In this document: positions 24,532 through 29,981 of the stretch, one piece after another | Layout: each line of letters begins with the position of its first letter | Numbering within the stretch: position 1 is the first letter of the stretch | Assembly: GCA_963823555.1 (NCBI GenBank) | Contig: CAWGMA010000001.1 | Span: forward strand, 1,824,001-1,888,000 | DNA: 64,000 nt | Direction: 5' to 3' | Origin: Candidatus Eiseniibacteriota bacterium | GTDB taxonomy: Bacteria > Eisenbacteria > RBG-16-71-46 > CAVPCR01 | Made by a program: the position numbers and the translations under genes | The notes under the pieces: generated by a model | The model's database searches: none | Told to the model about the DNA's origin: nothing | The model's input: the letters and a program-made list of their open reading frames with translations, nothing else

Positions 24532-27006
24532 TCATGCCGAGTCCCCACCCAGATCCAGTTCGAGCCAATCCGCGGTCCCCGGGACGGTGAGCGGTCTCCC
24601 GTTGAGCCGCACGTCGCGGATCCCGGGCGCCAGGAGGCGAAGGTGCCTGCCGTGACCCTCCACGACCGCCTGGTCACCCAGCCGGCGGAAGCAGAAATCC
24701 GCCGCGCCGCTCTCGGATTCGGCGACGACCACGCCCCGCGCCGCGAACCGCCTCAGGCCACGTCCGACGCAGGCGGTCATTCCGGTGCCGTCGCTCCACC
24801 GCACGAGAGCCAGGTGGCCGTCGAGCCGGACCTCCCCGCTCAGCGGACCTCCTTCCACCATGCCCTGGCCGCCGCCCGTGGCCACCAGATCCTGACCGGG
24901 CATGCCCTGAACCGCGAGCAGGTGGCCCGCCGTCAGCGGGCGCACCAGGGCGCTGGCCGCGGGCTCGATCGCCCCGGCGCCGGCCCGCGGGCGCAGCAGC
25001 AGGTGCATCGCGCCGGGCAGTGGCATCGTGGCTGCGAGCCGAAGCACGGGGGCGGGCTCGAGCCGGCCGAAGGCGGGTGATGACCAGCCCTGAAGCGGGC
25101 GTTCGCTGCCATGGAACCAGTCCATTTCCGGTGTGGGCGTCGAGAGCACCGCGACCTCGAGCGTGACATCGTTTCCGGTCGCGGCCGACAGCACCGTTCC
25201 ACTTCGCCCCACGAAACGCATTCCCGGAGCGAAATGAAGAAACGATTCGACGAGATGCTCCCCGCTGCCGGCGAGCTCATCGATCAGCCAGAAGTAATCG
25301 GGCTTGATGAAGATGATGGTCCGGCGATGATGCACCGGAGATCGCAATCGCGCGTAACCATCATGCTCGCCGCTGACGAGATCGAGAGCCGGCCAGGTCG
25401 CCCAATCGACGAGGCGTCCGCGGGCCTTGTGCCCCCAGAGGAACGCGCCGCGCATCTCCGACTGCTCGCATGCGTCGATGCGGAGCGTCGAATGCGCCGC
25501 GGTCGAGCGGAAGTGATCCCGGTATTCGGGCTCGGCGTGGTAGGTGTAGGTGCCGGGATCGATGAGCAAGGGCTCGCCGAAGGCCCCGCAGGCGATGGCC
25601 AGGCAATCGGCGTGACCATGAGCGGCGGTCTCCAGGTAGCCGAGCTCGCCGGCATCGAAGAGAAGGCCCCGATCCCCGCTCGCATCACGCAGGAGAGCAT
25701 AGCCACTCTCGGCGTAGAGCCGCGAGACCGGGGCCGCGCGCTCCGCCATGAGCGCCGCGAACCTCCCGCGACCCTCTTCCCCCAGGAGGAAGGCAGCTGC
25801 CGGTGTGAGATCCCTGACCAGGGCCCGCCAGTCGGCGCGATGGAAGAGCACGGCACCCAGGGCCAGCAGCGTCCGGCGCGGCGTGGTCTCAAGCGCCAGG
25901 GGCAACACGGTCTGATCGTCGGAGTCACCGATCGCCGGGGCCCCTCCCGGGAAGGCCTCGGCCTCCGCCACGAAATCCAGCATCGCGGCGATTCGCTCGC
26001 GCGCCGCGGCCGGAGGTTCCTCCCCGTTCGCCTGCAACGCGAGCCAGGTCAGAAGGGCGAGCTCCAGCACAAACTCGTGGTAGTGGAGCGAAGCCTCCCG
26101 CGACACGCCGTCCTTCGCGGTCTGGCGCAGGATCTCAGTCCAGAGAATCTCGCGTCCGGTCTCGCGCCAGACCGCCGCGCGCCTGAGCCCGCTGAAACCA
26201 ATTCCGGCGTGGACGAGCCCCGCGGCTTGCGCGATCAGATGGTTATTGGCTGAGGAATGGCGCGACAGGCTGCCGAGGATATGCTCGGCCTGGAGATGCA
26301 CGGAGCGCGCCAGCGAGGGCCCGAGATCCGTCAAGGCAGCCGATCCACCGATCATCCGCACCCCACGCGACCAGGCTACGAGGCGGAGCGCCAGTTCGAG
26401 GGGGATCATCCACTGAATCCCGTGGTAGGGAGGGCATTGATCGATCCAGCTCCGGATCAGGGCACCGGTCCGCGCCGCAGTTCGCTCATCGCCGCCCAGG
26501 TAGTACGGGAGGGCCAGGGCGGCGAGGTTCAAGTGCCGGCCCTGATACCAGAGGCGGCGTATCCCTCCCTCCAGATCCGGATTCCGGTAGTCGATCCGGG
26601 ACCAGTGAACCAGCGGAAAGCGTCTGCCAGTCAGGGGATCGGCATTCCAGTCGGGAGTTCCTCCGCCTGGATCGTTCTGATCCAGCAGCGACGCCCCCTT
26701 CCCCATTCCGGCCTGGGCGGATCCGGTCCCCGCGCTCGCAGCCGCGAGCGCTCGGACCAGGTCCGCTCGCCCCGGCCCCTCCCAAGGGAGTAGGCGCATC
26801 GGCCTTTCCCCGAACAAGCGCGACTCGGAGTCCCGGGAAGCCGGCGCCACGTCGTGGTCAGCAACAGCGCCGGTTTCGATTCCCATGGAGACCGCCACGC
26901 GATGAGTTCGGACCGCGAAGGCCCGGTGGGCGCGCCAGCTCATTTCCTGAGGCGACATCGCCCGGGCCCGGTCCAGAGTCCATTTGAGTCGATGGAGCCG
27001 CGACAT
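24532..27006 (-). CDS. Heparinase II/III-family protein
   Basis: SANNHLIA, EASLHYH, AHGHAD, LIDPGTYTY, FRSTAAHST. Confidence 0.85.
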   Translation of the reverse strand: MSRLHRLKWTLDRARAMSPQEMSWRAHRAFAVRTHRVAVSMGIETGAVADHDVAPASRDSESRLFGERPMRLLPWEGPGRADLVRALAAASAGTGSAQAGMGKGASLLDQNDPGGGTPDWNADPLTGRRFPLVHWSRIDYRNPDLEGGIRRLWYQGRHLNLAALALPYYLGGDERTAARTGALIRSWIDQCPPYHGIQWMIPLELALRLVAWSRGVRMIGGSAALTDLGPSLARSVHLQAEHILGSLSRHSSANNHLIAQAAGLVHAGIGFSGLRRAAVWRETGREILWTEILRQTAKDGVSREASLHYHEFVLELALLTWLALQANGEEPPAAARERIAAMLDFVAEAEAFPGGAPAIGDSDDQTVLPLALETTPRRTLLALGAVLFHRADWRALVRDLTPAAAFLLGEEGRGRFAALMAERAAPVSRLYAESGYALLRDASGDRGLLFDAGELGYLETAAHGHADCLAIACGAFGEPLLIDPGTYTYHAEPEYRDHFRSTAAHSTLRIDACEQSEMRGAFLWGHKARGRLVDWATWPALDLVSGEHDGYARLRSPVHHRRTIIFIKPDYFWLIDELAGSGEHLVESFLHFAPGMRFVGRSGTVLSAATGNDVTLEVAVLSTPTPEMDWFHGSERPLQGWSSPAFGRLEPAPVLRLAATMPLPGAMHLLLRPRAGAGAIEPAASALVRPLTAGHLLAVQGMPGQDLVATGGGQGMVEGGPLSGEVRLDGHLALVRWSDGTGMTACVGRGLRRFAARGVVVAESESGAADFCFRRLGDQAVVEGHGRHLRLLAPGIRDVRLNGRPLTVPGTADWLELDLGGDSA

Positions 27007-27409
27007 GTCTCCGCCGTCGAAGTGCTTGGGTTTCTGCCGCCTCTCCACAAGGACGGGGTTCCCGGGCGAAGAGACGAGGCCGATGAGGCAAGCCGGACTG
27101 GCAGGCTGAGGGTCCGGTCACTTGGTGGGAGCTTACACGCCTCCGGGCCGCTTCCGGCGCGGGAACAGTGGCCGGACCGAGGCAGGTCGGTAAGGTCGAC
27201 CGGCATGAGCGTCCGGCTCGCGCTGGCCGCAGGGTCCGGGAGCCGACATCGCCATGATCGGCCGGTCGGGGTCCGGCCGATCCAGGGCTCACCTCAAGGA
27301 CCCGGCAGGTCGCGCGGCCCGCTGCGCGGAAGCGGCCCTCGATCTGTTTGCGGCCGTGAGACAGCGTGTGGCTTCGGGCTCGGCGCCGAAGCCACCGTCA
27401 GGCCTGGCG

Positions 27410-28138
27410 CTAGTAGGCACCCCGGCAGGAGAGAACAGCCGGGATGGTCCGCGCCAGAATGCGCATGTCGTTGGCGAACGAGCGGTTGTAGATGTACTCG
27501 AGATCCAGGCGAACCCACTCGTCGAAACTCAGGTCGGAGCGTCCGGAGACTTGCCACAGGCAAGTGAGCCCGGGCTTGACCGACAGCCGGCGCATTTGAC
27601 TCGGCGTGTACTGCTCGACCTCCTCGGGGATGGGGGGGCGCGGACCGACGATCGACATATCACCGCGCAACACGTTCCACAGCTGCGGCAGCTCGTCGAT
27701 CGACGTGCGCCGAATGAAGCGACCCACTCGGGTCATACGGGGATCGTTGGCCAGCTTGAAAACCGGCCCATCCACTTCGTTCAGATGCAGAAGGGTGGTT
27801 CTGAGGCTGTGCGCGTTCTCACGCATCGACCGCAGCTTGTAGAACGTGAAGGGCTCGCCGCCGAGACCGCAACGTGTCGAACGGAAGAGAACGGTGCCCC
27901 GCGAGTCCATCTTGATGGCAAGGGCGATGATGGCAAGGACCGGGAGGCAGATGAAGAGCAGAATGGAGGCGATGATCACATCGAGCCAACGCTTGCCCGC
28001 TTTCTCATAGAAGGAAGCTTCGGAACGGGCACCGGCATCGAGGATCGAGGAGTCGATGGTGAAGGGAACGGCTTCCTCACCAGGAAGGGTTGCAAGGCGG
28101 TGTTCGGCGATGGCGGTCAGCTGGTTGGGAGGATTCAT
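27410..28138 (-). CDS. Priming glycosyl-1-phosphate transferase (Bac_transf)
   Basis: KRWLD, YKLRSM, DPRMTRVGRFIRRTSIDELPQL, GPRP, KPGLTCLWQVSGR. Confidence 0.95.
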   Translation of the reverse strand: MNPPNQLTAIAEHRLATLPGEEAVPFTIDSSILDAGARSEASFYEKAGKRWLDVIIASILLFICLPVLAIIALAIKMDSRGTVLFRSTRCGLGGEPFTFYKLRSMRENAHSLRTTLLHLNEVDGPVFKLANDPRMTRVGRFIRRTSIDELPQLWNVLRGDMSIVGPRPPIPEEVEQYTPSQMRRLSVKPGLTCLWQVSGRSDLSFDEWVRLDLEYIYNRSFANDMRILARTIPAVLSCRGAY

Positions 28139-28545
28139 GTCAAGCCACCCGCTGCTCCATGGATGCTAGGCCAAAGGCCAGTTTCCCGGCCCGGTGGACG
28201 AACCCGCGCCAGCTGTTCCATTTCGGAGCAACTCCGACGCGTTTCTGGCTTGAGCGGTGGGAGTCCGGAGTCGATCGACCCGGTGGGCGAGAACCTGGCC
28301 GCCGCACCCAGCGAGGCAAGGCTCATTGGGGGCACGACGATCGTGTGAGGGGGACCGCCACGAGTTGCGAGGCGGCACTGCTCAACCGGCTCTCAGCCTA
28401 GACCATCCGCTGCGGCCAGAAATCGCGCCTTTGGTGCTCCGCCAGCGACTGCTACGATGGACAAACTGACTGCGAGTCTGGCTTTAACAAGTGTCCGCTA
28501 GGAGTCCTTCTGAGCATGACCGCCACTTGCGATGCACAGATGACG
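28139..28545 (-). ncRNA. Candidate structured ~400 nt 5' leader RNA of the polysaccharide operon
   Basis: Nested complementary segments between 28201-28260 and 28403-28478, with G-U pairs that work only on the minus strand; GAAA-tetraloop hairpin at 28176-28191. Confidence 0.5.
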
Positions 28546-28551
28546 AGTTGG

Positions 28552-28580
28552 ACTATAACAAGCGCCCCCTCCCAAGTCAA
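28552..28580 (-). promoter_or_regulatory. Near-consensus sigma70 promoter with extended -10
   Basis: TTGACT-17 nt-TATAGT with TG at -15/-14. Confidence 0.8.
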
Positions 28581-28622
28581 TGGACTTTTGAGGATTAGCC
28601 ATTCCTGGAGCTCCTGGCCCCG

Positions 28623-29981
28623 ATGATCCCAGCCCCCTCCATCCCTTCGCAGTTCCGCGATTTCCTGCGGGCCCGGATACGCCTGGGCAGCCGCTTCAGG
28701 GCCCGACTAGCCGAGCTGAACCGCACCGAGCGCCTCGGCTCCGGGGATCTGGAAGCCTTCCAGCTGGCTGCCTTGCGACAGGCCCTGGTCCGGGCTGGGC
28801 GATCGGTGCCTTACTACCGCCGGCTGTTCGCCGATATCGGGTTTGACCCGGCCGCGATCTCCTCGCTGGCCGATCTGACGAGCCTGCCCACCATCGATAA
28901 GGCCCGCGTCCGCGAACGACCGGCCGAGTTCCGCGATCATTCGATCCTGTTCACGACCCGCGGCTATACGAGCGGAACGACCGGCACGCCGCTCGTCGTC
29001 CAGCGCGACCTCGACAGCGTTATTCATGAAAATGCCATGATTTGGCGCCAGCGCCTGTGGTTCGGCGTGAAGCCCGGCGATCGCATCGCGGTCCTCCGCG
29101 GGGAGGTCGTCACACCCGCGGCGAACACAGGGCCGCCCTTCTGGCGCGAGGACCGGTTCGCCCGCGAGCTCGTCCTCTCGAGCCATCACCTGGCGCCGCA
29201 GCATGCAGCGGCCTACCACCAGGCGCTCACGCGGTTCGCCCCTGCCGCCCTCTATGCGTATCCCTCCTCGGCAGGCGAACTGGCCCGCCTGTTCCGGGAC
29301 CAGCGGCTCGATCCACCTCCCCTGCGCGCCGTCTTCACAGCCTCGGAGACGCTCCGCAGGGAAGACGGGGAGATCATCGCGCACGTCTTCCGCGCCCCGG
29401 TCGTCGATCGCTATGGCAACGCCGAGCGCACACTGGCCGGCGGGCACTGCGAACGTGGTGGCTATCACATGTGGACCGACTGCACGTTGCTCGAGCTCTT
29501 ACCGGCGATCGAGGACAGTGCCGAGATGGTGGGAACGCCGCTCACGGGGCGAGCCATGCCGCTCTTCCGCTACCGAACCGGGGATCACGCCACCGGTGGA
29601 GCGCCGCCCTGTCCCTGCGGCCGCGTCTTCCCAGTCGTCGAGCGCGTTGAAGGCCGCCTGGACCCTCTTCTCGTGACCCCGGACGGCCGACGCATCGGGC
29701 GGCTGGATCATGTGTGGAAGGGAGTTGAGCACATCTCCTCCGGCCAGATCGTGCAGGAGGCGGACCTCACGGTGCGTCTCAAGGTCGTCCCTGAACCCGG
29801 CTATTCAGAGGTGGATCGCAGCCTGATCACCGCCCATGCCAGGGATCGCCTCGGCCCCGGAATGAACATCATCGTCGAAGAGGTCGATCGCCTCCCACGA
29901 ACCCGGAGCGGAAAGTTCCAGGCGGTGGTCAGCCTCGTGGAAGAGAGCGACGATGAGAGATCCGGGGGACGCGAGCCCTGA
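28623..29981 (+). CDS. Phenylacetate-CoA ligase/CapK-like adenylate-forming enzyme
   Basis: VPYYR, LPTIDK, TSGTTGTP, YGNAE, MPLFRYRTGD, EGR, SGKF. Confidence 0.88.
   Translation: MIPAPSIPSQFRDFLRARIRLGSRFRARLAELNRTERLGSGDLEAFQLAALRQALVRAGRSVPYYRRLFADIGFDPAAISSLADLTSLPTIDKARVRERPAEFRDHSILFTTRGYTSGTTGTPLVVQRDLDSVIHENAMIWRQRLWFGVKPGDRIAVLRGEVVTPAANTGPPFWREDRFARELVLSSHHLAPQHAAAYHQALTRFAPAALYAYPSSAGELARLFRDQRLDPPPLRAVFTASETLRREDGEIIAHVFRAPVVDRYGNAERTLAGGHCERGGYHMWTDCTLLELLPAIEDSAEMVGTPLTGRAMPLFRYRTGDHATGGAPPCPCGRVFPVVERVEGRLDPLLVTPDGRRIGRLDHVWKGVEHISSGQIVQEADLTVRLKVVPEPGYSEVDRSLITAHARDRLGPGMNIIVEEVDRLPRTRSGKFQAVVSLVEESDDERSGGREP

Follow-up and report, generated by a model that had tools for sequence, protein, structure and literature searches.

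The locus lies in the window, the whole 64,000-nucleotide stretch of DNA that was analysed, and centres on a gene for a priming glycosyltransferase (GT). As originally predicted, this gene starts at 28138: the open reading frame 28138–27410 on the minus strand matches Bac_transf (PF02397), and this near-core gene has a single-copy orthologue in 163 of the 206 genomes of the phylum, a set that is identical at class and phylum level. On its 3′ side, a 400-nt gap is followed by co-oriented genes for a heparinase-like protein, UDP-glucose dehydrogenase, a GT4 enzyme, a methyltransferase and other proteins. On its 5′ side, the claimed promoter TTGACT-17-TATAGT is present on the minus strand in TG-extended form; it is the sole promoter-like site within 27000–29500 (0.2 in shuffles), and its sequence is the same or nearly the same in five family homologues. 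Transcription is predicted to start at 28545, which gives a leader of 407 nt up to the GT ATG. Plus-strand open reading frames across the leader (28090–28401) were rejected as unconserved, the homologues differing by 1-nt indels. The features of the region are as follows.

28552–28580, minus strand: sigma70-type promoter TTGACT-17-(TG)TATAGT, from a site scan and kept in homologues
28519–28524, minus strand: GGCGGT hexamer, partly ops-like, at family level only (3/3 own-family genomes, 3/63 in family f10)
28484–28510, minus strand: motif A, GGAGG-N15-18-TTGnTA, here GAAGG-N15-TTGTTA, a predicted and likely factor-loading or pause site, from a PWM trained without the window's own family
28413–28478, minus strand: 5′ strand of a rod, invariant by genus conservation
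28286–28398, minus strand: multi-hairpin head with GAGAGCC/GGUUCUC, UGAG/CUCA, GCCGCC/GGCGGU and a variable hairpin, kept via compensatory changes
28201–28285, minus strand: 3′ arm of the rod, drifting in sequence and re-pairing with the 5′ strand; its part of the closing helix is GCGGGUU, 28207–28201
28173–28192, minus strand: GC hairpin 3′ of the rod, stem kept and U tail not
28139–28166, minus strand: ribosome-binding region GCATCC...GGGTGG, predicted to be paired, its opening energy not above that of other genes
27410–28138, minus strand: priming GT, from its reading frame and domain match
28194–28532, no strand assigned: stretch lying under RNA contigs of four metatranscriptome studies

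The helices claimed for the leader are fully paired where they had been placed: GACUCGC/GCGGGUU (7/7), UCCAU/AUGGA (5/5), CGGAGCA/UGCUCCG (7/7), GGCGCG/CGCGUC (6/6), UUUCUGGC/GCCAGAAA (8/8), AGCGG/CCGCU (5/5) and UGG/CCA (3/3). Together they are the minimum-free-energy and centroid fold of the leader. The core of this fold, 28195–28485, has a z-score of −3.56 against shuffled sequences on the minus strand (0/200 shuffles) and −1.42 on the plus strand, the whole leader scoring only −1.89, and the lowest value among 40 random 291-nt windows was −3.4, short of −3.5. Because the helices guided the choice of the core limits, and because the neighbouring intergenic stretch, 27005–27409, has an equal z-score of −3.56, the z-score alone is not unique to the leader. 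That stretch, downstream of the GT on the minus strand, is a possible second structured element, whose long-range 12-bp helix GGGCCGCTTCCG/CGGAAGCGGCCC is kept in relative G001; G003 and G004 have only a short gap there. A search of Rfam with the window and the leader returned no match at the gathering score or at E ≤ 10, and a search with 32 source loci of relatives gave none at the gathering score and two chance matches (E 0.014 and 0.39). At 28449 (UAGC-AGUC), one base that is present in four homologues and two RNA contigs is missing from the window; this is either a strain variant or an assembly slip.

Homologues of the leader were then compared. BLAST against 61 relatives yielded matches only in G001 (80%) and G002, and in a pattern scan of metagenomes three of 13 matches were true, two of them full length. 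Two metagenome homologues (L145 and L149) represent further genus-level variants of the leader that are usable as seeds. All five full-length homologues share this promoter and lie directly 5′ of the GT orthologue. Trimmed to the segment that the outer helix bounds, each forms a rod closed by (GA)CUCGC/GCGGG, with z-scores of −3.9, −3.2, −3.7, −3.0 and −2.7 in the sense orientation and −0.4 to −1.0 in antisense; longer cuts score more weakly (−1.1, −0.4, −2.4 and −2.2). The 5′ portion of the leader (28545–28413) is 93–95% identical among genus relatives, whereas identity at the four-fold sites of the GT is 50–58%. For the 3′ arm, identity within the genus is only 46–54%, yet the arm re-pairs in shifted registers. 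The outer helix, CGGAGCA/UGCUCCG (within the genus), the head helices and the stem of the GC hairpin are kept. In this set of five sequences, which is below the size needed for a covariation statistic, compensatory changes are seen in GUCAG/CUGGC, which becomes GUCGG/CCGGC, in AGCGG/CCGCU, which becomes AGCAG/CUGCU in G002, and in the variable head hairpin. By contrast, the inner helices GGCGCG/CGCGUC, UUUCUGGC/GCCAGAAA and UGG/CCA, although paired in the window, are absent from the genus-level relatives and lost outside the source species, as is the U tail: the terminal hairpin GGCCGG-GAAA-CUGGCC-UUU of the original prediction is present at 28191–28176, but its UUU tail is unconserved.

Could the fold be the chance product of GC-rich intergenic DNA? 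The GC content of 67%, the equally strong folding of the neighbouring intergenic stretch and the z-scores of only −1.1 and −0.4 for longer cuts of two homologues would be expected in that case. Set against them are core z-scores of −2.7 to −3.9 in five of five homologues in the sense orientation only, conservation far exceeding that of four-fold sites, the presence of RNA contigs over the leader and the pattern of change among close strains, in which six of eight natural differences fall at unpaired positions although 69% of positions are paired (of the other two, one preserves its pair and one breaks a terminal pair). We therefore regard chance folding as hardly tenable. The leader is real, previously undescribed and larger than first reported. 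As judged by comparison of sequences, the rod is specific to the family, and the phylum-wide part is the short signal at 28510–28484, which is predicted to be unpaired and was not among the features first proposed.

The RNA contigs, which are 98–99% identical to the window, span 28203–28531, 28194–28531, 28280–28515 and 28327–28532. Part of 27400–28700 is found in 20 sequencing runs, six of RNA and 14 of DNA, and four of each were compared, with RNA runs X19 and X20 and ten DNA runs outside the comparison. Leader-only contigs occur in all four RNA runs, which come from four studies; RNA contig depth is zero at 27963–28115 and at 28575–28800, and among the matches listed for the RNA runs only short, diverged contigs of other organisms reach the GT. 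By contrast, contigs from the four DNA runs are scattered pieces across the whole region, some extending beyond both ends. These data are a weak hint that leader RNA accumulates by itself, from contigs that give no strand, exact ends or level and that a nuclease-resistant decay product would resemble.

One reading of this accumulation is that the RNA of about 340 nt is a stand-alone non-coding RNA freed from the GT transcript, acting in trans as a sponge for a protein or for ribosomes, with a start-less Shine–Dalgarno (SD) sequence that binds the 30S subunit. Its assembly from the RNA of four studies in which the organism's neighbouring genes were not assembled fits such a molecule, as does a long irregular rod with one invariant strand. 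However, the element is single-copy, with no paralogue of the rod in its own genome, and in all five full-length homologues it sits directly 5′ of the same gene. Moreover, each family has a different body in its place, one covarying helix of the f10 leaders described below needs read-through mRNA, and the genome has canonical copies of 6S, RNase P, SRP and tmRNA at other loci, so the leader is none of them. We consider a trans-acting RNA quite unlikely.

Motif A was surveyed in DNA upstream of 147 of the 150 GT matches listed (G053 and two matches at contig starts were left out); 110 of these stretches had a promoter score of at least 13, 27 belonged to family f9 and ten were dropped as short or promoter-less. 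Of the 110 GT leaders, 87 carry the motif in their first 150 nt (0.7% in shuffles), against none of the 27 of family f9, counts that overstate the support because the genomes are kin and not independent; it is also found in three dropped f12 leaders and in G014. Its usual position is 20–50 nt after the predicted start. The copy in the window, 28510–28484, outscores all 1,500 random windows with the PWM trained without its own family. A strict pattern of promoter plus motif gave 63 matches in 49 of the 206 genomes (G053 included) against one control match. Of 16 non-GT pattern loci examined, 15 precede Poly_export/wza (PF02563) and one is an ordinary ribosome-binding site; at three further motif loci, the gene that follows is wza-like in one case and encodes a secreted protein in the other two. 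In the source genome, copies after promoters at G000:C1:463497 (minus), C2:217508 (minus) and C3:393909 (plus) precede a lipoprotein/Pal region, a large secreted protein and, as a weak case, a radical SAM gene. No motif was found before the window's own wza cluster, nor upstream of f9 GT clusters in 14 stretches of 2.4–5.8 kb, some of which end at contig ends. The GTs of family f9 (L365–L378) lack a long leader, and the genes before them encode large secreted proteins that carry a sorting-like domain at the C terminus.

The GGAGG half of the motif is complementary to the 16S anti-SD (16S 3′ end GATCACCTCCTT) and is often extended to GGAGGTGA, yet a start codon follows GGAGG by 4–10 nt in none of 87 leaders, against 11.2 expected. 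A leader peptide or upstream reading frame starting from the TTG was rejected on that count, because the frames range from 1 to 199 codons and because the TTG is replaced by TGG, CTG or TCG in 12 leaders. A sigma54 promoter at the motif was also rejected, since GG is missing at the distance that the consensus requires.

The wza leaders of family f10 (L344–L358) form a second conserved leader family, composed of a promoter, a hairpin CAYCGC-N5-GCGRTG, the motif, further hairpins and often a terminator; it has no Rfam match. In the window, 28535–28519 has arms similar to those of this hairpin, with the loop reverse-complemented, an arrangement that is possibly a DNA operator.

A different account of the motif is that the leader RNA, whether a 5′ UTR that happens to be stable or an intermediate of decay, takes part in no switch, and that motif A is a DNA operator or an alternative-sigma promoter, with GGAGG as the −35 element and TGnTA as an extended −10. 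The spacer between GGAGG and TTGnTA, at 15–17 nt in 85 of 97 cases, is promoter-like; TTGCTAA resembles the extended −10 of actual f10 promoters; the motif lacks covariation; and its targets are envelope genes. Weighing on the other side, the RNA contigs begin at 28531–28532, upstream of motif A, the final T of the −10 hexamer is absent, in 77 of 87 leaders a sigma70 start is predicted within 13–52 nt of the motif, and terminators come after it in many leaders. A DNA site of this kind is thus an unlikely explanation, in our estimate.

The bodies of leaders in other families were also modelled. A sequence model of 50 f10 leaders finds no match in 33 loci drawn from other families and from wza leaders, which indicates that the short motif alone is common between families. 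In the f10 body of about 290 nt, 87% of cells are paired, compared with 37–43% in slid controls, and 17 of 35 pairs show two-sided changes (0/500 shuffles), a covariation that is overstated because the structure was derived from the same alignment of kin sequences. One covarying f10 helix closes only after read-through. A hairpin followed by a U tract ends 51 of 63 leaders of f10, the largest family, compared with five of 63 shuffled ones, and terminator-like hairpins with U tracts are also present in f18 (3/3), f14 (2/2), f3, f4 and f6. No fold that offsets the f10 terminator was found: the alternative fold costs 10.2 kcal/mol in native and 10.2 kcal/mol in shuffled sequences, with the native lower in 24 of 51. 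A candidate f10 antiterminator, CCUUGGU/GCCGAGG, was rejected, as one column pairs in only 22% and the energy test was null. Because no such fold is seen, strand swapping as in a riboswitch is unlikely, and polymerase would have to be modified, or a factor act, for read-through to occur.

These results bear on a riboswitch that would sense a second messenger, a lipid carrier or a nucleotide sugar, and in which the invariant 5′ module would be the aptamer and the 3′ arm would swap between the rod and the ribosome-binding region. The 5′ module is indeed invariant, and early transcripts are predicted to fold it locally before the rod supplants this fold. In addition, UGCUCC of the 3′ arm pairs with either of two GGAGCA copies, one beside the SD, and in the source genome opening the ribosome-binding site costs 13.6 instead of 7.4 kcal/mol when the 5′ strand is blocked. 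In the other four homologues, however, the rise is just 0.1–1.8 kcal/mol and the values are like those of other genes (median, 10.1), f10 is without an antiterminator, an aptamer-like fold is conserved within families only and none between them, and Rfam gives no match. We rate a riboswitch as decidedly improbable. Pairing of the 5′ end as a switch of the ribosome-binding site was rejected separately, the opening energy being the same when the 5′ end is blocked.

The genomes were also searched for candidate factors. The UpxY profile matches in 137 of the 206 genomes, mostly to one housekeeping-type NusG gene each; extra NusG paralogues occur in a few genomes. The source genome has two, on another contig and far from the operon (L029 at G000:C3:16.4 kb and L364 at G000:C3:408.8 kb); both are stand-alone and UpxY/LoaP-like, with a long extension at the N terminus, and both have an integrase-like gene as neighbour. 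Elsewhere, G001 has four paralogues and G003 has one that heads a wzc/GT/flippase cluster. The own-genome paralogue that was scanned scores 37 bits against an RfaH cut-off of 144.5 and 62.7 against a UpxY cut-off of 100, and neither the motif nor ops was seen before six NusG paralogues. Rho is present in the source genome; two Rho-like genes occur in each of five genomes tested (in the source genome at G000:C3:496469 and C1:203953).

We favour, at somewhat better than even confidence, a reading in which the leader is a default-off attenuator and a factor loaded at the motif, in the manner of ops or opsX, permits read-through into the GT. Polymerase would mostly stop near the end of the leader, leaving leader RNA, and a factor loaded at GGAGG-N16-TTGnTA would license read-through into the polysaccharide genes. 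TTGnTA would be read in the non-template strand as a pause or loading site, and GGAGG, some 30 nt upstream of the active site, would be read as upstream DNA or as a start-less SD. With TTGnTA at −11 to −6, we infer that GGAGG would be near −32 to −28, at about the distance of the UpxY contacts with upstream DNA described below and in a part of the nascent RNA accessible to the 30S subunit. The loading factor may be the housekeeping NusG, the 30S subunit or another protein. In the window's family, the stop would be Rho-dependent, or the RNA trimmed to the base of the rod, rather than intrinsic. The rod is likely a family-specific body whose free-drifting 3′ arm may mask the invariant 5′ module once made. 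The reading draws its support from the RNA contigs confined to the leader, the motif before GT and wza genes and the terminator-like hairpins of other families. Several observations count against the attenuator: the f10 model matches no locus outside its family; the motif in the window is degraded to GAAGG, scoring 15 against a training median of 25 (8.9 in G002); terminator-like U tracts are absent from the own family f1 (0/3) and from f2 (0/2), f13 (0/6) and f17 (0/5) and present in one of seven f8 leaders; and no phylum-wide NusG paralogue was found among the 206 genomes.

A version of phylum-wide antitermination without a dedicated NusG paralogue can also be drawn, in which polymerase pauses at TTGnTA, the start-less SD brings a 30S subunit to it, and read-through of envelope-polysaccharide operons is thereby licensed; a large RNA body would have been built around the signal in each family. 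We hold this version to be quite improbable.

Long polysaccharide operons are classic targets of processive antitermination, for which few systems are known (RfaH, UpxY, LoaP and EAR). In our search, no published description of the leader or motif was found; subscription papers and the supplements of motif surveys lay outside that search. By analogy, the motif A leader likely works like ops/RfaH or opsX/UpxY but is neither. Like ops/JUMPstart–RfaH of Enterobacteria, it has a short, sense-oriented leader signal downstream of the promoter of polysaccharide synthesis and export operons, which is likely a pause or loading site. Unlike ops, motif A differs in sequence, is bipartite with a 15–18-nt spacer and comes with no RfaH; the 12-nt ops consensus GGCGGTAGnnTG has no match in the leader at ≤1 mismatch, only GGCGGT being found, at family level. 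Motif A also holds a perfect SD, whereas SD elements are missing from RfaH targets (PMC7819879), and many motif A leaders have intrinsic terminators downstream, against which RfaH is described as inefficient.

The opsX signal of UpxY is described as a multipartite element of about 40 nt in non-template and upstream DNA, with UpxY contacts near −31 to −34 (PMC11685472), and the opsX–UpxY system of Bacteroides capsule operons involves premature termination in the 5′ leader (PMC11685472 and PMC7819879). Motif A is likewise multipartite and its geometry would be compatible with reading of non-template and upstream DNA: the predicted position of GGAGG is at the UpxY contact distance of −31 to −34. 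Unlike opsX–UpxY and LoaP, the first gene of the operon is the GT and the NusG paralogues are on another contig; unlike opsX, which is locus-specific, motif A is one signal common to several operons and families. In Bacillus leaders, the housekeeping NusG reads a T-rich non-template motif, TTNTTT, at −11 to −6 in attenuators (PMC11602163). TTGCTA fits three of the five fixed positions of that motif; in the Bacillus leaders, pausing tunes a ligand-driven terminator/antiterminator switch, and none such was found for motif A leaders.

The leader resembles EAR of Bacillus eps and HK022 put in being a structured RNA tied to a polysaccharide operon with a proposed change in read-through. According to PMC8191782, EAR and put act on their own. 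By contrast, the leader has no covariance-model match to them, and its structure is replaced in each family around a common, short, unpaired signal. Comparison of the sequences points to a factor loaded at that signal rather than to antitermination by RNA structure in the style of EAR or put. The proposal of a new cis-regulatory or antitermination RNA thus stands in part, as a new cis-acting structured leader, on the evidence of conservation, fold and RNA data.

The analysis provides a defined cis signal and its regulon (the priming GT, wza and some envelope genes) in an uncultured phylum mostly without known factors, together with about 100 natural variants, covarying family-level RNA structures and two family-level RNA motifs ready for Rfam. 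The signal is short enough for reporter and in vitro transcription tests.
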